Shown here: positions 583 through 50,571 of the stretch, piece after piece | Layout of the letters: each line of letters starts with the position of its first letter | Numbering within the stretch: the first letter of the stretch is position 1 | Assembly (NCBI GenBank): GCA_000934665.2 | Contig: KZ538174.1 | Span: 62,001 to 113,978 of the forward strand | Reading direction: 5' to 3' | Source of the DNA: Catajapyx aquilonaris | Taxonomy: Eukaryota | DNA: 51,978 nt | The notes under the pieces: generated by a model | What the model was told of the DNA's origin: nothing | What the model saw: only the letters and a program-made list of their open reading frames with translations | Database searches by the model: none | Made by a program: the position numbers and the translations under genes

Positions 583-1638
583 TATTAATAAAATTTCCTT
601 TGATCATTTCTTAATTTTAACACAAATAATTTTAGCAAAAATTAATTTCATTACAAAATTTTAGAGAAGGGAATTTTCAACAAAAATTAAAAATTCACAA
701 ATTCACAAATTAAAAATAATAACGTAATTTTAAACATGGCAAACTGACAGCTACACACTTATTATTTGTCACACAATATTATTTTGTCCGTAGAGGTCCC
801 CATCGCTTGGATCTTTGTCAGCCATCTTTAACAGCTGGTATGGGACTTACCCCAGGGATAGGGAACGCTCCTTCTACTCCCCAATACCGCTCAAATATCC
901 AACTTACGACTTATACCATTTTTTGACCAACTTGGAGTAGTTCTCTGAATGTGACGGCAGTCCTACCTTGAAAATGGCATTTTTGGACTTGAGCAACATT
1001 TGTTCTAAGCGCCTCATATGTTCTCTGAGTTGAGTAGTGAAAATCTGGGATCAAAAGTTGAGAATTAGCAATATTTTCAGATTTTGAAAGGTCACACCAG
1101 GCACTAGGAACCGTGCTAGGAACCTTCCAAAATGTTAAGTTTATTTTTTCTGACAATAGTTGAAGGCCAATTTTTGGAGTTACATATGTTCATGAACAAT
1201 AATTATATTAAAAATTAAAATATTCATAAGCATGATTCCACATTGTAATATCCCAGTTGCAGTGTTGCTACAATGTGCAACCCACCAGCATTTATTTTAT
1301 TGGATAATACTTTTTGTGAGCAATATACAACTCAAAAAATTGGCCATCGTCTACCATTTTCAGTACAATTAAAAACAAAATTCTGGAAGGTTCCTAGTGC
1401 CTGCTGTGGCTATTTAAAAAGCAAAAAAATTAAAAATTCTCAACTTTTGAGGACAGGTTTTCACTACTCACAGAACAGACACTTAAAAACTGAGTTTCAC
1501 TTTTTCCCCTATTATTATTAGGAACATACTCTAATGAAAATTATTGTGCCTCACTCCAAAATCAATCCTGAAGACATCCTTTTGATTGGAAGCCCACATT
1601 TCACCTCTCCCAAAATGACAAGCAACACAAAATACTAA

Positions 1639-1786
1639 GGGCCAGTTGCACCGGCCTCAGTATAACTTAGAACCTCGGGTATATCAAGAATTGCCATAGC
1701 AATCATTGTTGACCAACAATGATTGCTATGGCAATTCTTGTTATACCCTAGGTTCTAAGTTATACTGAGGCCGGTGCAACTGGCCC
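1639..1786. mobile_element. PIF/Harbinger-type hairpin MITE
   Basis: Near-perfect 148-bp palindrome with GGGCC...GGCCC ends and TAA on both sides. Confidence 0.85.
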
Positions 1787-2095
1787 TAACTTGGCTGGAG
1801 TCATTCCATATGGCCACTCTATTTAGATTCTGGAGTCACATATACCAACTTGTTCTGAAGGCCTTAATAATCTAGCCTACATAAAACTGACCTGGAATTC
1901 TGTGAGGTCCGGTTCCTGTGCCAAATGATGCCATCTCTGTGTTGTTAAGTGAGGATTCCTTTGGTGTGCGTCCACTAGACATTTTTCTTGCTTTTCCTGA
2001 AGCAACGATGCAGTAAGTTGTATCTGACTTCCCTTGTTTTGTGGCATTATCTTCACTTGTTCGTTTCAGTTGCGCAGGTACACTATTCACTGACT

Positions 2096-3067
2096 TTAGC
2101 ACATGTGGTAATTTTTAAACCAAGATTTTATCTGTGCTTCACTCAGCCAGAGCTGTTTGCAAAGCTTTCTACATTGGATATCTGTAAGATATACACTTTC
2201 TGAAAGTGATCTCTTCAAGACCTGTAATTGCTTTTCAATGTAGGCAATCCAGATTCCGCTATTCTTGTCCCTCTTGACTCTGTCAGTAGTATAATCAAAA
2301 TTATATCTACTACATTTCCTGCCAGAAGAACTGACTCTCTCCACACAACTTCTGGCTGTACTACATAGGTTATGCTTTTCAGGGCTTTCAGTTCCCTTCA
2401 AGTCAGAAATCAGCTCAGCTGCCTTTGACTTTTGACTTGTTACTGGTTTGGGTTTTTCTTCTCTGCAATTTTCAAACCACATTTTTACCTGCTTCTCAGG
2501 TAAGTGCAGTGGCTGAGCTTCAGGCTTCATGAAACATGCCTCAGCATTACTCATTCCCCCACAAAATTCACTTTCATGCATGTCACAATCAACTATGGCC
2601 ACATTCACTGATTGACCAATTTCATTTTTACTCTTGTACAAGGTGAATAAACCACCAGCATTAGCTCTTGCTACATTTTGTGATTCTACAGAAGATGGAA
2701 GTAAGGGTGGCATATTTGTCACATCATGTTTAGTGACATTGTGTATGTCAATGCCCAACATCGCTGCCAAATCAACCACTTGCTGGACTTCTTCACCATT
2801 GCTGGCCCACACCTTCCCAATGTACACCAAGGTCAATACTTTTTGCATGGTTGTCTGCATGATATCAGGTAAGACTATGTTACCTGCCCATCCTACATGT
2901 GAACTCTTAAGTAGCGTTCTGAGAAAAGTGCTTGCAGAAGCTAGAATTAAACGATGCACTCTCAGTTGTCCATCAGAACAAGTAATGGTGACATCCAGGC
3001 AGGACTGATCATGCCACAATTCCAGCAATGCATCAGGAAGAAAGAAATTAATTGTAGGGAATTCCAT
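2096..3067 (-). CDS. BTB/POZ-domain protein with C-terminal degenerate homeodomain(s); single coding exon, 323 aa
   Basis: First ATG at 3067, just after a splice acceptor (tttctttcag, exon starts at 3089). The N-terminus DVTITCSDGQLRVHRLILASASTFLRTLL...IVLPDI...LVYIG...LAAMLGI is BTB-like. The C-terminus AYIEKQLQVLKRSLSESVYLTDIQCRKLCKQLWLSEAQIKSWFKN has homeodomain spacing. A second helix-3 motif, LHLPEKQVKMWFENCR, lies internally. Confidence 0.8.
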   Translation of the reverse strand: MEFPTINFFLPDALLELWHDQSCLDVTITCSDGQLRVHRLILASASTFLRTLLKSSHVGWAGNIVLPDIMQTTMQKVLTLVYIGKVWASNGEEVQQVVDLAAMLGIDIHNVTKHDVTNMPPLLPSSVESQNVARANAGGLFTLYKSKNEIGQSVNVAIVDCDMHESEFCGGMSNAEACFMKPEAQPLHLPEKQVKMWFENCREEKPKPVTSQKSKAAELISDLKGTESPEKHNLCSTARSCVERVSSSGRKCSRYNFDYTTDRVKRDKNSGIWIAYIEKQLQVLKRSLSESVYLTDIQCRKLCKQLWLSEAQIKSWFKNYHMC

Positions 3068-3361
3068 TGTCACCCAGGGACCTCACATTCTGAAAGAAAA
3101 AGGAATATTTTTTACCCACTGTACCACATTCATAATGAAATAGGCAAAACTTCACATGCAGTAGAATTCATGAATTCTAGCAGTGGCCTTCAAATATCCT
3201 GCTTTGCAAACTTTTGCTCTTGACAAACTTTGCTGGAATCCTTTAAAAAGCCCTGCACCAAATTTTTATAAACCTAATAACTGCATCCTACGAATAACTC
3301 AACTTAAAATGAATAAATTAAAAAACAGAGTTGAACAATTTAAAAATAAAAATCCAGCTCA

Positions 3362-4160
3362 AGTTTAGGTTTAGGTTTATTAAGAAGAAGCCAAAGCAAC
3401 TATGGCTATCTGGGTACAATAATAATAATTGGGTTAGTGCACTGCCCATTTGATGGGCATCTGGCAAGGTACCTTTATTTGCTTTTTTTTTAGGTGTACA
3501 AGCTTTGTTGGTCCTTTTCCGTAACGCCCGGGTACTGCTAGTGAGGGAAGGGTGACTGGGAGGGGATGTGCAATGTGCAGTGCAATGTCGTTGCTGCAGT
3601 CATTTTGTGAACTCCCTCGGATGGTTAGTCTCAAGGAATCCCACCCAAGACGAAGCCAGAGATGACCCAGAACTCTGCACAAGATGAAGGGGGGGAATTC
3701 CCGGGCTTAGGATCAAGCCCAGGACCCATACATCTGTGGGCGCATACGTTACTGCAGCGCCACTCCGCCTCCCCGCTATCTGGCTATAAGATAATGCAAA
3801 GGTGTGACAGATGAAGAGAGAAACGAAGAGGGAAAAGAAGAGAGGAAAGACTGGATTTGTATTCATAACAATGCGGGTGATGCCTGGATAATCTTCCCCC
3901 TGGATGGTATCTCCACCTTATCGTGGTGGTGGGGTTTGCGTTTCTTCCGTGACCCCAAGGGCTATGCCGGCTGTAGCTTCATCTACTGGTAGGGTCACCC
4001 AAGCTGGACAGGTCTTTGGGATAGGAGACAGACTAAGAGAGATGCCAGTCTTTCCTCTCTTCTTTTTCCTCTTCGTTTCTCTCCATCTGTCCCACCTTTG
4101 AATCTTCTATAGCCAGATAGCCACAGTTGCTTGGCTTCTTCTTAATAAACCAAACCAAAC
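3362..4160. mobile_element. Foldback element enclosing an RTE-type 5'-UTR motif; left arm interrupted by a SINE
   Basis: 3366-3413 plus 3775-3853 is the reverse complement of ~4044-4160. The centre 3910-4041 resembles RTE/REX3/BovB 5' ends. Confidence 0.65.
3414..3774 (-). mobile_element. tRNA-derived SINE, family 1
   Basis: Pol III-like head and direct repeat gctatctgg at 3405-3413 and 3775-3783. Related copies at ~26490-26684 and ~30340-30517, and a degenerate one near 46660-46800. Confidence 0.7.
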
Positions 4161-4770: not shown

Positions 4771-5276
4771 CAGGGGTGATTGGAAGTCAGCATACTCATT
4801 GACCATAAACAAGTTGAAAATGTAGGGGTGTGAAATGTCAAGGGGCCAACCGGTAACGAGGTAGACGATCAGAAACACAGGCCTAGCCCTAGAAACATCA
4901 TGACACCTCTTCATAGCAGATCCCCTGGCTGATGGACCTGCCCACCCTACAATAGTTTCCTAGGAAGCAGGATATGAAAATGATAATCATGACTGTGAAA
5001 GAGGTGATCTCTCAAAATCCCATCAGTAATAATTATCACGTTCATGTCCTGTTTCCTAGGAAACTATTGTAGGATGGGCAGGTCTATCAGCAAGGGATCT
5101 ACCTATGAAGAGGCGTCGTGTGTGTTGCAGCATGTGTCTAGGGGTAGGCCAGTGTTTATGGTCGTCTACCTCATTACTGGTTGGCCCCAAGACATTTCAC
5201 ACCCCTACATTTTCAACTTGTTTTGGGTACACGAGTATGCTGACTGCTGGTTGACCTTGTAGTAAGATACACCCTG
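4771..5276. mobile_element. Tc1/mariner-like foldback MITE with long TIRs
   Basis: TA-CAGGG...CCCTG-TA ends with ~200-bp inverted arms. Related copies at 29468-30242 and ~45040-45250. Confidence 0.75.
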
Positions 5277-30100: not shown

Positions 30101-30679
30101 CTTCCCCCCCNNNNNNNNNNNNNNNNNNNNNNNNCCCCCCCCCCCCCCCCTCCAAACACTACTGTTTTGGGTCAATGAGTACATTGACTTTCAGTTGCCC
30201 TGGGCATCAGAGGATCACTCTCGGGGTGTCACTTGAGAACTGTATCTAGTACATACTCTCCTTTCAGCAAGAGAATAGTACTGGCATTACAGATAATGAA
30301 TAAGGTGAGTCGGGGCAAGTACGACCCTGTTTTACATAGGTTTTAGTGAACTCCCCCGGGTGGTTCAGTCTGTAGGAAATACCACCCGAAACGAAGCCAG
30401 AGGTGACCCAATGAACTCTGCACGAGATGAAGGGGGTGTCCCCGGGCTGGGATCGAACCCGGGACCTTAACATCCGTGGGCGCATACGTTACTGCAGCAC
30501 CACTCCGTCTCCCCCCAACCCTAGGTCTATAGGATCCATTTGAGAGATGGCGGCACTTGATTGGCTCCTTAGGTGAGGAGTTATGCGAGTTTTCCCACCT
30601 CGTAAATGTAGGATAAAACCGCATTAAAATGGCATAGAATGATACAGATCCACTCTGCCAAAGTATTACATGGTAATAC

Positions 30680-30750
<71 letters not shown>

Positions 30751-32529
30751 GATACCCCGTGATAGGCCCCTTGGGCCTCTTAGGGGATCATCTTTTGAAT
30801 AACCGATTTTAATCATTTGCCTGTAATGTGATGGATTTTGATAGTGGAAGGAAACGGGAGAACCCCGAGAAAACCCACGCGAACACGGAGAGAACCCATC
30901 GAAACTCTATCCACATAAGTATCCTCCGTCCGACCCGGGGATCGAACTCGAGACCTTAGAGGTGGAAGGCTGCGGCGCTAACCGCTCGGCCACCGTGTCG
31001 CCCACTACATGGTAATACTATGTGATCACAACCACTAGAAAACTGGTATTGCACTATTGTCTACCTCTCAGGGGCAATATGTTGTAATGTGGTGAATCAT
31101 ATCCATGTTAAGTCATTCTGATGGCACTAACAGACACTGGAACATTTCTTAGAACTCTAGTTCACCTTCTCGAATGCTGTAAATAAGAAAACAAACAAAC
31201 AAACACCTGTACTTTATACATTATACGTGTAACATACGTTAACTCATATCCCATTGACAACGGCCACCGCACTGGCGAAGTTCTGTGCACGGCAAGTTAG
31301 CTTTTTTGCACTTGCACTTCACCATGCACAATTTCTTGCATCCGCATTTTATCAGAAGGAGCAGAGACTCTTGTGGTACTGGAAGAGTGATCCATACAGG
31401 CTCCCATGACACTGTACTGCCCTGAGCAGCACGAATCCAGCCCCAGCCTGATGGATCTGGAAGATCTTGCATGGCATTCAGACATTGGCCCCAAACCTGC
31501 CCTCCCTGGTAGCCAGCTCAGAGGCAACATCTTGGGTGGGTGGTGACACCTTTTAGCTATATTCAGGGTCCTTTGTGGACAGGTGTCACCTCATTACCTT
31601 GTAATACTTCGGCAGAGTGGATCTGTACCATTCTATGGCATTTTAATGCGGTTTTATCCTACATTTACTAGGTTTCCATGTTTTGAGCCTGACCAGGTGG
31701 GCAAACTCACATAATTCCTCACCAACCGAAGCAGGTTGGCATAGTGGATAAGGCTTCCGACTGCTAATCGGGAGGTCCTGGGATCAAATCCCGGGGCCGG
31801 CAACTCTGACCGTGGTTTTCTGTGGTTTCCCACGGTCCTTCCAGGAAAATTCCGGAGTTGATTCCGTAATTAACAGGCCACAGCCGCTTCCTTCCGTCCC
31901 TATCCCATTTCAAAAAGAGCAGTAAAATGAAAGCAAAGAGTTCCAGGCAAAAGAAAACTTCCCCCCTAAAGAGCCGAAAAAGGCTGATAACGGGGTATGA
32001 ATTATTATTATTATTACATAATTCCTCACCTAAGGAGCCGATCAAGTGCTGCCATCTCTCAAATGGATACTATAGACCTAGGGAACATGTCTGCCAAGTG
32101 GCACCTTCTTGTCACAAAGTGCCGAGTTAAAACTCTTAGTTCCCTGATCAGGTTGGCAACACAGCATAACTCGTGACCTAAGGGGCCAGTCAGTTGCCTC
32201 CAACTCGGAAATTGCTCCTATAGGTCTAAGGAACATATGTACCAAGTGGCACCTTCTTATCCCAAAATCCAAAGTTAAAAATGGTTCAAAACGCTCAGGT
32301 CCAGGACCAGGTTGGCAACACCTCATAACTCCTGACCTAAGGAGCCGATCAAGTGCCGCCATCTCTCAAACGACTCCTACAGACCTAGGGAACATATGTG
32401 CCAAGCGGTACCTTCTTATCACAAAATGCAATTTTAAAAACGCTCAGGTCATCCCCGGCCATGTTGGCAACATCGCATAACTCGTGACCTAAGTGGCCGA
32501 TCAGTTGCCTGCAACTCTGGAATTGCTCC

Positions 32530-44500: not shown

Positions 44501-45524
44501 TTTTATAACACATGTTACCTTAAATATTCATTAATTACATTTTTGGAATTGTGGCCAAGTTCACCCTGGCGACCAACGTCACCCCATTTGACAGTATTCT
44601 ATTCATCCCTGACTACTGTTCCCAGCCCCCAGACACTCATACTACCTTCTGATGTTATCACCTACCGAAGCGTTTTGCAGAAGGTGCTCACTTGAGCGCG
44701 CCGTGAGACATTTCACTCTCCGGATATGTGGCGACCCTACCGGACTAGGCTGAACTTTATAGGTACAAAAAGGAAGCGCTACATGCGGGCACAAAATGTT
44801 GGGTCCACTGGGTCCACCAATGTAGCTTTTGTACCTATAAAGTTCAGCCTAGTCCGGTAGGGTCGCCATTTATCCAGAGAGTGAAATGTCTCATGGTGCT
44901 CTCAAGTGAGCACCTTCTGCAAAACGCGTCGGCAGGGGGTAGGTGGGAGTGTCCAGACCTTATCTTCTATGACCGTGACTGTTCCTTTTACTTCAAAAGT
45001 TGCGACTGCCATAGTGCACCTTACTCCCTAGGTGGAGATACAAAATGTGTTTTTATTAGTGGGACATCCTGCGGGCAGAACATTTGTTGGCCCTAAACTA
45101 AAATGTAGTGTGAGAAATGTCAAAGGGCCAACTGATAACAAGGTAGATGAGAAGGTGCATTTGTCTGCCCCTAGACATGCACAGCAACACACATTCAGGA
45201 GGATTTCATATGGAGAACTAAAGGCAGATTTACTAGCACAAATTCAATGGCAATCTTAGCCTTATTTGTCATTTTAAAAGTTGGGTACTCCATCAGGCAT
45301 GTGTGGCCTCTTCGGGTATCCTCTTTTACATCCCCACCTTTATTATATTGCTCTGTTGCTAATGTAACCCACATGAGAATGGAGAAAACCCACTGACACT
45401 CTTTCTACATGAGAACCTCTTCCTGATCAATAGTCGGACCTGAGATGGAAGACTGTAGGTCTAACCTTTACAGCATCTTATCACCCTTTGCACAAGCACA
45501 TTTTGCTCATGAAAATATCAGAAG

Positions 45525-45583
<59 letters not shown>

Positions 45584-48500
45584 GTAATCATCATCATCAT
45601 CATTATCATCATCATCACACCCAGCTTGGTGTTCCCAAAAAGGCACAATGCTGGCTCACATTTTGGCCATTACATACCTGTATTAGTGTAAATTGCGGTA
45701 GCAGGATAGTATACAGATGCTTGGTGATTACAGGTATTGTGGTGAGATGGGCAGAGGAGAAGGAAATAAAAGTTAGGTTGGTGGGGATGGGAAATGAATT
45801 TGAAGGAAGGAATCAAAAAAGATGACACCCTAACTTCATACCTATTCCACCAGTTGGATCTTGGTCTTGCTCTTTCGCCTTGCTACCACCCCACCAGCTG
45901 CTAAACCATCCACCTTTTTGCTGCTCTTTTTGCTGGTTCCCACGAATCTCCACCTGTCAAAAATTTCCAGTGACAATCCATTCGACCCCTTGCTCAGTAG
46001 GGGTAAACCAGACAGTTATGGCCCACCATACTTTCTAATTGATATAATAATAATAATAATAATATCATACCCCATTGAAGCCGTTCTGGCTTTTTAGGGG
46101 GGAGATTTGTTTTTTTGGCTGGAACTCTTGTAAACTTTATTTCGCTTTTTGGGACGGGATAGGGATGGAAGGAAGCGGCTGTGGCCTATTAACTAGGAAA
46201 CAACTCCGGTATTCACCTGGAGGAACCGTGGGAAACCACAGAAAACCACGGTCAGAGTTGCCGGCACCGGGATTCGAACCTCGAACCCAGGACCTCCCGA
46301 TTAGCAGGCGGACTCCATATCCACTACACCAACCTGCTTCGGTTTTATAATTGATATTAAGGAGGTTGGCCCAGCATTGCCTTTCAACCTCCAAGGATAG
46401 GGAAGGAAGGAAGCAGCTGTGGCCTATAATACGGAAGCGACCCCGGAATTATCCTAGGAAGACCGTGGAAAACCACAGAAAACCACGGTCAGGGTTGCCG
46501 CCCCGGGATTCGAACCCAGGACTTCCCGATAAGCAGTCGGATGCCCTATCCACTATGCCAACCTGCTTCGGTGGCCCACCATACAGTAATGAGCCACTTA
46601 TAGTAATCTTATTCATATTAATGTGTGTAATGAAAGTAGTGATAATTATTGCCCATGGGTGGCTGCACTGCATTGTTGGACGAACATTGTGTGCAGTTTT
46701 TCCCCGGTTGGACTTTCATCAAGGTGGCCAGAGCCTCACGTCTCTGGGTCACTTCCAGCAGGGGCACTTCCTTAAGTAGTCGGTAAGGAGTAGCACTGCA
46801 GCTAGTGATAAGTTACAAGGGTTTTCGTCACTCCAGGTTGCTGATGTCAATTTGCATGGCTAGGATACACTCCATGGTTTCATATTTTGTAGATAATGAT
46901 GAGTCAGTGTAGATAGCATGAGTAGAAGGGGGTGGCCCACAACTGTGTGGATCAAAACCTTCACTTTACTCTAATGGGCATACCCCATAAATACATAAAT
47001 TAATAATAAATCTACAGGGTGGGCGAAAAGTCCCAGGACACCTGGCTTTTTTTGCCTGCAAAACAAATCTGTGCATGGAAAATGTGTCGGATTTGCTGGT
47101 GTAACATCTTCTGGACACTGACGGAACTGTTTGATGAGGGGAGACATCTGGGGACCCCCAACAACACCCACAATAAATTAACAATGTTAACAGTGCAAGA
47201 TGGCGGATACGAGCGGGTTCACTGTGGAGGAGAGACTTGTGGCTACTGTGTGGGTCCACGAGAGGCCTCATACGGGAAAGAACCTAACGCACATCATGCA
47301 GGATATCAGGGCTCATTTTGGTAAGGCGCCACTGAGAAGAAGTAACTTGTTCAAGTGGGAGAAAAAAGGATTCAGCATGTGATATGTGAAAGACGGGAAG
47401 CGTGAAAGACACTTCCCTTGCTAAATGCTTTTTTCTCCCATTTGAACAAGTTACTTCTTCTCAGTGGCGCCTTACCAAAACGAGCCCTGATATCCTGCAT
47501 GATGTGCGTTAGGTTCTTTCCCGTATGAGGCCTCTCGTGGACCCACACAGTAGCCACAAGTCTCTCCTCCACAGTAAACCCGCTCGTATCCGCCATCTTG
47601 CACTGTTAACATTGTTAATTTATTGTGGGTGTTGTTGGGGGTCCCTAGATGTCTCCCCTCATCAAACAGTTCCGTCAGTGTCCAGAAGATGTTACACCAG
47701 CAAATCCGACACATTTTCCATGCACAGATTAGTTTTGCAGGCAAAAAAACCCAGGTGTCCTGGGACTTTTCGCCCACCCTGTATATTATATCAATAAAGA
47801 CGGATGTGATTCTGTCTGCCAGTCTGTCCGCCCACCAATGCCATCTCTGGTCCTACTCCAACACCTTCAACCTCTCCCGCCTGTATAACGCCAACCTGCC
47901 ATCTGTGGGCCTGACCCGGCCTTCCTAATATGTTAATAAAGACGGATGTGAAGTCTGTCTGTCTGTCTGTCCGTCCGTCCGTCCGGCACGCCAACCATCT
48001 CATTCGCCTGCCATCTGTGGTCCGCTTCCTACATCTCCAACCTCTCCCGTCCTTCCGACCCAGCCTTCCTAAAAGTATCATGGCGGTTCTCTGTGCGTGC
48101 AAATTTTTACGGGGCTACAGGTACGAGTAGGTGTTATCCCTTCATTCATTTCTTCCCGGGCAACGCCGGGTGCCACAGCTAGTTAATAAAATAAGTCTGC
48201 ATTCATATGATTTTACACATGGTTAGACGAACACATGACACCCCTGGACATGATATTTTGCCTTTACACATACATACAGGGTGTCTCAACTTTTTTGTCT
48301 GATCAGTTATCCGAAAAGCCTATGTATCTTCTAGCAATGTAGCCAGAATATGCCCCAACATTCCTGGCACATCCCTCAACTGTTGAGGGATGTGCCAGGA
48401 ATGTTGGGGCATATTCTGGCTACATTGCTAGAAGATACATAGGCTTTTCGGATAACTGATCGGACAAAAAACATGAGACACCCTGTATAACCGTTTTCAG

Positions 48501-50015
48501 TTACCAGGATACTTGGCTTCAGCACCTGTATATTAGCCTACCGCTTAGCCTGCATCATTTTATCCAATAGTGCCCCTAGACCAGTGGTTCCCAAACTATG
48601 GGCCGCGAGGCTCCTCCAAGTGGGCCGCGAGCTTTATTTTTTATTTTTTAACTATGAAATAATGATCTTGCGAAATGAGGAGCAAGAGCACAGTACGTAA
48701 AAAAAATACATATATTGTGTAGCATGAATTTTGCAGCTCTCAATAAGGGAGGTGACTCTCACTCAAAAGATTGGGTCGAGTCTTTTTCGCCCAGCTGTGA
48801 CACTTGACAAATTCCCTCAAATACACACCCATTCAAATCTCCCACATTCACCTCTAGGCTCGTGTGACCTTGAACTCCCCCAAAAAATTACGCCTGCGGC
48901 GGGCTTTCTCNNNNNNNNNNNCCCCCCCCCCCCCTAGGTGGGCCGCGAGATATATTCCCTATCTAATGTGGGCCGCGAGCAAAAAAAGTTTGGGAATCAC
49001 TGCCCTAGACCCTATCCAACATGAAGGAATAAGGGGAGACAGGGAGGTAGACACCTCCAGATGTGGGGAGGTAGGTGAATGCGACAATCATGAAGGAATT
49101 TCAGGTGAGAAAGTCATCGGTTCTTAACAAAATTCTTTGCTTGGCAGGCAGGTTTGGTAATTCCGGAGTAAATGCATCTATCAGGCAAATGACGACAAAG
49201 GCTAGGGGGATGATCATTAAAACTTGAAAAACTTCTGAGACAGTAGGAAACAGTGCTGGGCAACACCCTGCACCACGAAAGTGCGGCAAACAACAATGGA
49301 GTCCCTACAATTAGGTGGCCCACCACTGTCACAAAGGCGGCCCATAACTGTGAAAAGTGGCCCATAACTGTACTTATGTGACTCTTTTGGAACTCTTCAT
49401 TACCAAAAATGACAGTAAAGGAGAATTTCAAAATTACAGTTGCTCCTTGGAATAGAACATTCTGAAGATTTAGGAAAAAATATAATCAAACTGCAGATGT
49501 AATTACTGTGGGTCATGTGACGATGTGAACTTGAAAAATTTCTTAAGTGGCCCATAACTGTATGGTTTACCCCTACTCAATCTGTACCTGAATTTCCACA
49601 CGCTTCCTGATGAGGGTTAGGTTGAACACATCCAGTTCCTTTTCACATTCCTCAAGGACATCCGTCACCTTTTGTGGCAGTTTTGCTTGAGTCAGTTTAG
49701 CATAATATGCTTCTTGATAGGCCCGGCACATGACTCTGTGCTTTTTCATATGGCTCCATGACCAGTTGTCATGATTTCGCTTCACAGTGTCAGCCATAAC
49801 ACAAGCAAATGCAAAGTGCCACCTGTAAAAAAATATATATTTGATGATTGTCTAGAACTCTAAATCATCACTGCAAGAATGTACTCACCAAGTTTTAGGA
49901 CTTTGCATCACACTGATGTTCTCAGGTCTAAACTTTTGGAATGGAGCAGCCCGAGACATCCACTCAAATGACTGCAGCAGTTCCATGATGTCTTGGTATT
50001 GGTTCTTACCCAACC
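10372..50015 (-). CDS. VPS13: Vacuolar protein sorting 13 (VPS13A/C-type intermembrane lipid transfer protein), 5'-partial, ~51 exons
   Basis: Exons (5'->3'): 49889-50015, 49588-49822, 45842-45953, 41681-41927, 41363-41617, 38892-39044, 37833-38010, 37591-37774, 37431-37534, 37206-37353, 36345-36577, 36035-36263, 35739-35974, 35386-35553, 35186-35320, 34921-35093, 34403-34556, 29286-29409, 25281-25304, 25081-25217, 24753-25011, 24421-24680, 24226-24348, 24053-24155, 23846-23992, 23567-23757, 23375-23512, 23218-23316, 21601-21780, 21223-21252, 17785-18102, 17570-17727, 17392-17509, 17103-17327, 16830-17042, 15359-15559, 15009-15287, 13357-13505, 12961-13302, 12745-12907, 12472-12688, 12242-12414, 12063-12182, 11867-12003, 11614-11809, 11317-11556, 11084-11253, 10914-11028, 10716-10856, 10487-10642, 10372-10416. 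The sum of 8762 nt stays in frame (~2920 codons) and ends [14 protein letters not shown]. Hallmarks: [84 protein letters not shown]. Confidence 0.97.
15866..15910 (-). CDS. VPS13: Candidate VPS13 cassette exon, 45 nt ([15 protein letters not shown])
   Basis: Acceptor tttatcatttacttgcag, consensus donor cag|gtgagt. Phase 0-0, open. Confidence 0.65.
16328..16372 (-). CDS. VPS13: Candidate VPS13 cassette exon, 45 nt ([15 protein letters not shown])
   Basis: Long pyrimidine tract ctctcttttgttgcccctttacag, donor cag|gtatca. Phase 0-0, open. Confidence 0.65.
16640..16705 (-). CDS. VPS13: Candidate VPS13 cassette exon, 66 nt ([22 protein letters not shown])
   Basis: Acceptor cctcctttccag, donor cag|gtgact. 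Phase 0-0, matching the flanking exons; no stop codon. Confidence 0.6.
18440..18813. repeat. GC-rich inverted-repeat (foldback) element
   Basis: gtgagcttagaggtcc...ggcggcgctgggatcacgaacctagataggt is mirrored by acctatctaggttcttgatcccagcgccgcc...ctaagctcac. Confidence 0.7.
18886..19606. mobile_element. pogo/Tigger-like MITE
   Basis: TA-cagtgaaacctg ... caggtttcactg-TA. Confidence 0.75.
21962..22784. mobile_element. hAT-like MITE with a nested Tc1/mariner MITE (22283-22678)
   Basis: Outer TIR cagaggtctcaaac / gtttgagacccctg; the TSD is imperfect. Inner element TA-ccgtatttacg ... cgtaaatacgg-TA. Confidence 0.75.
22825..23177 (-). mobile_element. tRNA-derived SINE with V-domain-like core (family 2) and (ATT)n tail
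   Basis: A/B-box head (gagttcgatccc), (AAT)n tail, 17-bp TSD tcagaataacaggttat. Confidence 0.85.
25636..26881. mobile_element. Long foldback element containing a family-1 SINE (~26490-26684)
   Basis: Several hundred bp of inverted arms (accttacccaaatcccatagttt... / ...aaactatgggatttacgtaaggt). Confidence 0.75.
27053..27138. repeat. (ATT)n microsatellite
   Basis: Direct reading. Similar tracts at 32531-32583 and 45526-45582. Confidence 0.95.
27576..28175. mobile_element. PIF/Harbinger-like MITE
   Basis: TIR aggt..tattctcatatctgcgaacag / ctgttcgcagatatgagaatagacct, with TTA on both sides. Confidence 0.7.
28550..28866. mobile_element. hAT MITE inserted into the arm of an older hairpin element (~28338-28921)
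   Basis: TIR cagggctattcaact / agttgaatacccctg, with exact 8-bp TSD gtctagaa. Confidence 0.85.
29468..30242. mobile_element. Tc1/mariner-like foldback MITE (same family as 4771-5276); spans an assembly gap
   Basis: TA-cagggtgtatc start; arms similar to 4771-5276. Confidence 0.65.
30682..31005 (-). mobile_element. tRNA-derived V-domain-like SINE (family 2)
   Basis: Same sequence as 22825-23177, with 15-bp TSD tacatggtaatacta. Confidence 0.85.
31724..32015 (+). mobile_element. tRNA-derived SINE (family 3)
   Basis: A box tggcatagtgg, B box-like ggatcaaatcc, (ATT)n tail, 15-bp TSD acataattcctcacc. Confidence 0.85.
33166..33711. mobile_element. pogo/Tigger-like MITE
   Basis: TA-cagtaaaacttct ... 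agaagtttgactg-TA, with internal ttcgagtta repeats. Confidence 0.75.
36634..37197. mobile_element. pogo/Tigger-like MITE
   Basis: TA-cagt...actg-TA ends with repeated gataactcgaa motifs. Confidence 0.7.
38147..38827. mobile_element. Unclassified TIR element
   Basis: aatggggaagtagcctt / aaggctagttccccatt inverted ends; CpG-rich interior. Confidence 0.5.
39640..40008. mobile_element. Non-autonomous element with 8-bp TSD, asymmetric termini and an internal hairpin (copy 1)
   Basis: TSD gttcaaac at 39632-39639 and 40009-40016; internal inverted arms of ~115 bp. Confidence 0.8.
40060..40278. mobile_element. Small TTAA-flanked hairpin element
   Basis: TTAA at both ends; internal inverted repeat ccccacagggatcttgtggttcggg / cccgaaccacaagatccctgtgggg. 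Confidence 0.55.
42075..43876. mobile_element. Tigger-like MITE hosting a nested palindrome-ended foldback (Helentron/DINE-like) element at ~42528-43670
   Basis: Outer TA-caggttgagaat / attctcaacctg-TA. Inner palindrome with 25-bp arms at 42528-42579, inverted arms ~42750-42985 and ~43420-43635, and a short (GACG)n tract. Confidence 0.7.
43977..44594. mobile_element. TA-flanked MITE
   Basis: TA-ccgtcaaatggggtga ... tcaccccatttgacag-TA. Confidence 0.75.
44623..44977. mobile_element. Non-autonomous element with 8-bp TSD, asymmetric termini and an internal hairpin (copy 2)
   Basis: TSD actgttcc at 44615-44622 and 44978-44985; same termini as 39640-40008. Confidence 0.8.
46032..46571 (-). mobile_element. 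Tandem dimer of family-3 tRNA SINEs inside one TSD pair
   Basis: Two heads at 46571 and ~46342, and a single 13-bp direct repeat tggcccaccatac at 46019-46031 and 46572-46584. Confidence 0.8.
47015..47781. mobile_element. Tc1/mariner foldback derivative: two inverted left ends, each with a transposase N-terminal HTH fragment
   Basis: TA-cagggtgggcgaaaag ends and ~355-bp near-identical arms. ORFs 47200-47382(+) and 47372-47596(-) both start [14 protein letters not shown] and the minus copy continues [24 protein letters not shown] (DUF4817-like HTH). Confidence 0.85.
47784..48182 (+). mobile_element. Non-autonomous Helitron
   Basis: 3' hairpin cccgggcaacgccggg (48155-48170) followed by CTAG|T. 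The 5' aataaagacggatgtg motif is duplicated and followed by (GTCT/GTCC)n. Confidence 0.75.
48277..48485. mobile_element. Tc1/mariner-type near-perfect palindromic MITE with a 1-nt loop
   Basis: TA-cagggtgtctca ... tgagacaccctg-TA, centred on 48381. Confidence 0.85.
48582..49002. mobile_element. hAT MITE
   Basis: TIR cagtggttcccaaact / agtttgggaatcactg, with exact 8-bp TSD ccctagac. Confidence 0.85.
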
Positions 50016-50338: not shown

Positions 50339-50571
50339 TGACTTTAATTGATATTTAAGGAGGTTGGCCCAGCATTTGCCATTCAACCTCCAAGTATAGG
50401 GAAGGAAGGAAGCGGCTGTGGCCTATTATACGGAAGCGACCCCGGAATTATCCTGAAAGACCGTGGAAAACCACAGAAAACCACAGTCAAGGTTGCCGGC
50501 CCCGGGATTCGAACCCAGGACCTCCCGATTAGCAGTCGGACGCCTTATCCACTATGCCAACCTGCTTCGGT
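50339..50571 (-). mobile_element. tRNA-derived SINE (family 3, alternative tail)
   Basis: A/B boxes and 14-bp TSD aatcttcaagtgac. Confidence 0.85.

Follow-up and report, generated by a model that had tools for sequence, protein, structure and literature searches.

The window analysed here is a stretch of 51,978 nucleotides from Catajapyx aquilonaris, in which a single reading frame joins a BTB/POZ domain to homeodomain sequence. The question raised by this locus is what such a frame would encode, that is, a working transcription factor, a protein acting by some other route, or a gene in decay. The parts of the frame and its upstream border are as follows.

2096..3067, minus strand: whole coding frame of 323 amino acids, from the ATG at 3067-3065 to the TAA at 2098-2096
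2747..3019, minus strand: BTB/POZ domain, residues 17-107 (Pfam PF00651, AlphaFold2, Foldseek)
2267..2734, minus strand: linker, residues 112-267, predicted to be disordered (AlphaFold2 pLDDT, Pfam)
2453..2518, minus strand: homeodomain remnant, residues 184-205, AQPLHLPEKQVKMWFENCREEK (our own HMM, second Pfam stretch, motif statistics)
2099..2245, minus strand: terminal engrailed-like homeodomain, residues 275-323, equal to homeodomain positions 7-55 (Pfam PF00046, PDB phmmer, AlphaFold2, Foldseek)
3083..3100, minus strand: likely 3' splice acceptor, a polypyrimidine tract with an AG at 3091-3090 (direct sequence reading)

The reading frame and its genomic setting

An earlier note on this DNA had described one uninterrupted open reading frame at 2096..3067 that joins a BTB domain to a homeodomain. 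This was borne out, as the 323 codons run without interruption on the minus strand (3067..2096) and both domains score above their Pfam cut-offs. With 328 codons from stop to stop, compared to 211 for the runner-up, this is the longest such frame in the 52-kb window, where 0.003 frames of that length are expected from the window's own stop-codon frequency. The start ATG lies in a good context (ACAATGG), and the AG of the likely splice acceptor is 23 nt upstream of it. Stops are present in all three frames between this AG and the ATG, so the coding sequence begins at the ATG and continues no upstream exon; the same stops rule out that the frame is a 3' exon of the VPS13 gene that lies upstream. 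The interval also holds a minimal upstream ATG-TGA (3088-3083). Judged from the polypyrimidine tract and its AG, a putative 5'-UTR intron is likely upstream of the ATG, which leaves unproven the earlier description of the gene as intronless. Retroposition, which had been proposed on that ground, did not hold up well either. No A-run of 8 nt or more was found within 2.1 kb downstream of the stop, so the mark of a processed retrocopy is not seen, and together with the likely acceptor just upstream of the ATG this argues against a retrocopy origin.

The region 1760-3392 was covered by one read contig per run in three DNA runs, with 0 differences and a depth of 28-36, corresponding to a single copy. 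These three runs probably come from the assembly's own sample and thus give no independent support; within those data, the identical contigs indicate that the TAA of the frame is no assembly slip. The sequencing runs found to match the locus are all DNA runs, four of them from one sample, perhaps the source, and a fifth with the same species label that matches the flanking repeats only; this has no bearing on expression. A read joint from 1523 to 3671 was considered as a deletion allele and not accepted; it appeared in one contig per run with a side of 24 nt, and we attributed it to the flanking high-copy repeats.

The frame sits in a single-copy island of 1.6 kb (1760-3392), which is flanked by high-copy repeats with a depth of 10^4 or more. 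The following element lies on its downstream side, 309 nt past the stop and within the presumed 3' UTR.

1638..1787, no strand assigned: palindromic high-copy element, MITE-like, with 74-nt arms that are 97% complementary and 2 nt between them

The read depth of this 150-nt palindrome was 16,000-38,000, compared to 28-36 over the frame, indicating that it belongs to a repeat family of very high abundance. Inverted-repeat elements of a similar kind occur at 1031-1470, 3816-4083 and 4785-5245. Directly upstream of the island, 3350-3700 is highly repeated sequence (depth 4,000-60,000) with many variant contigs. Downstream of the stop, 795 nt pass without a polyadenylation signal before the first AATAAA of the coding strand, at 1301.

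The VPS13 gene, which encodes a lipid-transfer protein, is a multi-exon gene at 10590-50000 on the minus strand, with VPS13_N, VPS13_M, VPS13_VAB and VPS13_C following one another in order of decreasing coordinates. Its end is about 7.5 kb away from the BTB-homeodomain frame, which it precedes on that strand. A PDB search with one VPS13 piece gave no match. Two 72-nt sequences (31731-31802, plus strand, and 50494-50565, minus strand) were identified as tRNA-Ser(GCT) by ARAGORN and Rfam, and Rfam found nothing in the window beyond these two tRNA-like matches. They are identical to each other at 69 of 72 positions and lack a long variable arm, which a real tRNA-Ser is expected to have. The pair are probably the heads of a tRNA-derived SINE inside VPS13 introns. 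Elsewhere in the window, a 32-nt unit is exactly duplicated in tandem at 312-375, a plus-strand frame at 45427-45825 with about 21 Asn in a row and then a stretch rich in His is an AAT/CAY microsatellite, and short N runs mark assembly gaps at 30111-30134 and 48911-48921.

The BTB domain and the two homeodomain segments

The BTB domain matches PF00651 over residues 17-107 (E 1.1e-11; 45.3 bits compared to a cut-off of 20.5). Its fold was predicted confidently by AlphaFold2 (residues 10-103, pLDDT >90), and the best Foldseek matches of this model are BTB/POZ structures, including the NAC1 POZ domain (3ga1; E 4e-6, TM 0.74 on the target). An alignment of 20 BTB proteins has 6 invariant columns, and the domain carries the invariant residue in each of them; the same is true of the 15 columns invariant across the 5 closest BTB relatives. 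Prediction of a BTB homodimer gave a score of 0.19 against a mark of 0.32, which we take as evidence neither way. In sections of a survey of BTB proteins (PMC11426971), the motif FxLRWN in the BTB N-terminal extension is described as the Tramtrack-type mark and as arthropod-specific. This motif is absent from the present protein, placing it outside the Tramtrack (TTK-type) group.

At the other end of the frame, Pfam found the Homeodomain family PF00046 in two stretches (E 1.2e-13; 51.1 bits compared to a cut-off of 22.9), the better of which covers residues 278-320, or profile positions 9-51 of 57. Our own homeodomain HMM, built from 167 homeodomain segments of fetched proteins, aligned residues 275-322 of the terminal domain with profile positions 6-53 (43.8 bits). 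Three C-terminal helices (278-290, 296-306 and 310-322; pLDDT about 95) were predicted in an AlphaFold2 run that used a 20-sequence alignment. Because five members of this alignment are homeodomain proteins and may bias the model, the last 64 residues were also folded alone without an alignment; again, three helices were obtained, with a mean pLDDT of 70. Searching Foldseek with this single-sequence model returned homeodomains in 50 of 50 listed rows, with engrailed on top (rmsd about 2.2 A over 44-45 columns), and with weak E values (0.02-0.15) that are usual for so small a domain. Both the profile match and the three-helix fold, which the earlier note had named as checks on its homeodomain, were thus found.

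Comparison with solved structures by PDB phmmer identified engrailed homeodomains as the best relatives (E 1.7e-6, about 47% identity over 45 residues), sharing the stretches LKR..E..YLT and L.EAQIK.WF.N with the terminal domain. These were followed by GSX2 and HHEX, with scores about 1000-fold worse. Engrailed Q50K variants rank first because the present protein has K50. Drosophila En (PDB 1enh, 2hdd and 3hdd) is thus both the best per-domain sequence match and the best structural match. Unlike engrailed, the terminal homeodomain has K50 in place of Q50, has lost arginines 5, 31 and 53, and ends at position 55. The Engrailed family has a Q50 homeodomain flanked by the motifs EH1-EH5. No EH1-like (FSI-type) motif occurs in the protein and nothing follows the homeodomain where EH5 would stand, so it is not an Engrailed family member.

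The C-terminal end reads W48 F49 K50 N51 Y52 H53 M54 C55 and then stop, and the engrailed alignment agrees with the earlier reading of K50 and N51, a His at 53 and an end 4 residues after N51. An end at this position could also result from a mis-read gene structure, in which the frame would be part of a spliced gene with a downstream exon that completes the homeodomain, or in which parts of the linker would be introns. Consensus-like donors are present within the remnant (CAG/GTAAAA, about 2490) and at 1891 (CAG/GTCAGT). However, the donor at 1891 comes only after the stop, the TAA comes directly after C55, and from the N51 codon to the stop there is a single GT (cacat/gtgcta), which stands in a poor donor context. 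Moreover, Pfam found a further BTB or homeodomain piece in none of the 104 minus-strand frames of at least 65 aa, and a tblastn search of the window with the protein gave none either. We consider a mis-read structure very improbable.

We then compared the residues of the hydrophobic core with those that contact DNA, using homeodomain position numbers taken from the engrailed alignment. All 11 core positions (8, 13, 16, 20, 26, 34, 38, 40, 45, 48 and 49) are hydrophobic or aromatic, compared to 4 of 13 DNA-contact positions that are kept (Y25, K50, N51 and M54; Fisher p = 6e-4); the contact positions other than 5 and 50 are those generally assigned in homeodomain-DNA work. The changed contact positions are S2, G3, W5, I6, C31, S47, H53 and C55, and position 57 is missing. 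A homeodomain core signature of L16, F20, W48 and F49, and key roles for positions 5 and 50, are given in parts of Burglin & Affolter (2016; PMC4901127). The terminal domain has L16, W48, F49 and N51, with L20 as a conservative change from F20, and it is not a complete 60-residue homeodomain with R5, R53 and a full helix 3 (W5, H53, stop after 55).

These residues bear on whether the protein could be a working transcription factor. In such a factor the BTB domain would dimerise, the K50 homeodomain would bind a bicoid/Q50K-engrailed-like TAATCC site, and the upstream RVKRDK would replace the contacts of the N-terminal arm. Consistent with this, W48, F49, K50, N51, Y25 and M54 are kept, the engrailed Q50K-type variants that match best in the PDB include some solved on DNA, the fold is predicted both with and without an alignment (pLDDT about 95 and 70), and complete BTB + homeodomain proteins are known elsewhere. 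However, R5, R31 and R53 are gone, I47 is replaced by Ser, and with the helix ending at 55 the K55/K57-type contacts are absent; the roles of contact positions other than 5 and 50 are here partly presumed. A working factor of this kind seems unlikely to us. HOPX is a homeodomain protein that does not bind DNA and has no BTB domain. The present protein may offer a parallel to it, with the homeodomain fold retained, the DNA-contact residues gone and an action that would proceed through protein contacts.

The linker between the two domains has a pLDDT <50 at residues 112-193, 214-222, 224-227 and 231-267, and of about 57-60 at 194-213, and contains no Pfam family apart from the homeodomain remnant. 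The earlier note had pointed to a second, isolated helix-3 motif in this region, and our results support it. Residues 184-205 match homeodomain positions 34-55 only, which comprise helix 3, the turn before it and the last part of helix 2 (18.3 bits with our own HMM), and carry E50, N51, C52 and R53. When the window is translated in six frames, two instances of the motif [IV][KR].WF.N are present, both belonging to the BTB-homeodomain frame, compared to a mean of 0.02 in shuffles (n=100). Residues 184-205 are thus the remnant of another homeodomain, and the protein once contained more than one.

Relatives and comparable architectures

An exhaustive HMMER search of 1.84 billion representative proteins gave 246 matches at E <= 1e-3 and no close relative at E <= 1e-30. 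The sole match at E <= 1e-10 is a protein with six BTB repeats, whose scores are summed over the repeats. None of the 1250 candidates from a word-indexed protein search reached E <= 1e-3, and a metagenome contig scan produced 59 pattern matches and 0 relatives. A lineage-specific BTB + homeodomain chimera, as proposed earlier, is in agreement with the single frame and with the lack of a close relative among these representatives.

Among the matches listed, the closest BTB domains are those of P0003, P0004, P0007 and P0009 (32-36% identity) and of P0018 (32%), the last being named 'uncharacterized protein LOC110859928' from the springtail Folsomia candida, which among the relatives is the one pointer, and a weak one, to arthropods. 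They form a BTB-only family with a C-terminal DHAY/DHPY motif and share 15 invariant columns; this family has no homeodomain or other DNA-binding domain, and the present protein is without its C-terminal motif. Multi-homeodomain proteins rank high in the search because their score is summed over several domains. When single domains are compared, engrailed has 28 bits compared to 22.6 or less, which rules out the multi-homeodomain proteins as the source of the closest homeodomains.

Proteins with a BTB domain and a complete homeodomain do exist. Five of them, confirmed by Pfam, are among the best 150 of the 246 matches, and a search started from P0029 gave 6 more (P0152-P0156 and P0158), so that at least 11 are now found (P0106, P0152-P0156 and P0158; P0017 and P0091; P0021; P0029). 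None is named in its source (ena, jgi, and lgn, which is Logan). Most lie on transcript-sized contigs (1.3-1.6 kb) and most have a Tramtrack-type BTB with FCL[RK]WN. P0106, P0152-P0156, P0158, P0017, P0091 and P0021 make up a conserved set with a Tramtrack-type BTB and a complete Hox-like homeodomain. These at least 11 proteins share with the present one both Pfam families and their order, and are of similar length (265-522 aa). In contrast, their homeodomains are complete and of the Q50 type (WFQNRR[MQ]K), while that of the present protein has K50 and stops at 55, and the identity in the alignment is 20-25%. In none of them is the homeodomain doubled or truncated, and they are likely independent fusions. 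Given this identity and the absence of FxLRWN, we regard the present protein, on the strength of its sequence, as a separate fusion. The suggestion that it is a degenerate paralogue from a BTB-multi-homeobox family can be kept in part: the protein is degenerate and truncated and has a second remnant, although no family of that kind was found.

In the BTB survey (PMC11426971), the DNA-binding domains reported for BTB transcription factors are of the C2H2, psq/HTH or FLYWCH kind. The word 'homeobox' is absent from the main text of this source as far as consulted, and a search of supplementary files 1-12 (of 14) did not turn up BTB + homeodomain. Across these 12 files, 'homeodomain' occurs 9 times in a single file, and the 2 of the 9 occurrences viewed are PHD-finger rows. 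Exact phrases for BTB + homeodomain had 0 occurrences in about 8.4 million texts, and keyword searches of the literature found no description. With at least 11 unnamed proteins in the databases and nothing in the literature searched, the BTB + homeodomain class seems real but undescribed. The combination is not unique to the present protein.

A comparable architecture is that of the BTB + Pipsqueak/psq HTH proteins (Drosophila Psq and Bab), described in the same survey (PMC11426971). As here, a BTB domain at the N-terminus is joined by a long disordered linker to a small three-helix domain of DNA-binding type at the C-terminus. The nearest two ESM-Atlas clusters are also BTB + HTH_psq (scores 0.77 and 0.76), although these are leads only. 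Unlike those proteins, the C-terminal domain here is a classical homeodomain (PF00046), and HTH_psq (PF05225) is not among the 5 Pfam families found at E <= 10, so the protein does not belong with BTB + Pipsqueak. Nor is it a ZBTB protein, since no zf-C2H2 family was found by Pfam at E <= 10 and no C2H2 pattern is present. Proteins of the ZHX/Homez type contain several complete homeodomains; the present protein has one near-complete homeodomain and one 22-residue remnant, and its Homez match is below the cut-off (E 0.12; 12.5 bits compared to 21), which sets it apart from this type as well.

Decay, constraint and the likely role of the protein

The composition of the frame is unusual for this window. 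Its CpG observed/expected ratio is 0.10 (4 CpGs in 969 nt), compared to 0.30 in the Pfam-positive VPS13 pieces and to a median of 0.42 over windows of equal size, ranking 7th lowest among 491 windows. Arginine is encoded by 1 CGN and 12 AGR codons, compared to 39 and 27, respectively, in the VPS13 pieces (p = 7e-4). Four codons at homeodomain positions that usually hold Arg are one CpG-deamination step from a CGN Arg codon, namely C31 (TGT), C52 of the remnant (TGC), H53 (CAC) and C55 (TGC). This suggests that the DNA-contact arginines may have been lost under relaxed constraint. As a compositional signal, the CpG-deamination pattern resembles unconstrained decay and would count against reading the frame as a selected gene.

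The locus could accordingly be viewed as a relic or young pseudogene. In this view, selection would have ceased on a gene that once encoded a BTB domain and two homeodomains, its frame would still be open through recency or luck, and the premature stop at position 56 of the homeodomain would be among the changes that disabled it. The truncated homeodomain with its arginines swapped for CpG-decay products agrees with this view, and the strong CpG decay fits a relic equally well. No relatives were found in the protein searches or the metagenome contig scan, a high-copy palindrome lies shortly past the stop (309 nt), and the first AATAAA is 795 nt away. Against it, a frame of 323 open codons has an expectation of 0.003 per window, and the BTB domain keeps every invariant residue and a confident predicted fold. 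The losses fall on the DNA contacts (4 of 13 kept) and spare the core (11 of 11), which is unlike random decay, and helices 1-2 of the first homeodomain have decayed without one stop or frameshift. A pseudogene is possible, though in our view less likely than not. Because the loss hits the DNA contacts while the core is spared, and because the loss of helices 1-2 with 323 codons still open would be hard to achieve by neutral drift, the sequence suggests that the frame was kept open by selection, at least in the past.

The reading that we favour, tentatively and at slightly less than an even chance, is that of a genuine single-copy, lineage-restricted BTB gene with degenerating homeodomains, the product of which would act probably via BTB contacts and would bind DNA in the canonical way only weakly or not at all. 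It has behind it direct evidence on the two domains, their predicted folds, the truncation and the pattern of residues kept and lost, and the good start context, the plausible acceptor and the single-copy read depth agree with it. The frame encodes a BTB/POZ domain that is intact, a long linker predicted to be disordered and the leftovers of two homeodomains. The first of these is reduced to helix 3, and the second, engrailed-like and of the K50 type, retains the predicted three-helix fold with most DNA contacts gone and a stop at 55. Such a protein would most likely still function by means of its BTB domain, either self-associating or forming pairs with different BTB proteins, and the homeodomain would add no more than a protein contact or weak DNA binding of a non-canonical kind. 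Its role would be that of a modulator or a dominant-negative type relative of BTB transcription factors, and not of a classical homeodomain factor. The 'degenerate or dominant-negative' option of the earlier note fits the loss of DNA contacts with the fold kept.

A further version of the argument, which we think has a small chance of being correct, holds that the protein is a newly evolved 'micro-regulator', whose captured engrailed-type homeodomain would have been turned into a protein-interaction or decoy module that titrates BTB partners or homeodomain cofactors. If this were true, the locus would show the re-purposing of a homeodomain caught in the act, within a BTB + homeodomain class that is undescribed in the literature searched. 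Under the favoured reading of a BTB gene with degenerating homeodomains, the locus would represent a divergent BTB + homeodomain member that records the stepwise loss of a homeodomain. Should the locus be expressed, it would show how a homeodomain can become, in nature, a module that does not bind DNA; should it not be expressed, it would be a lineage-specific gene in ordinary decay.
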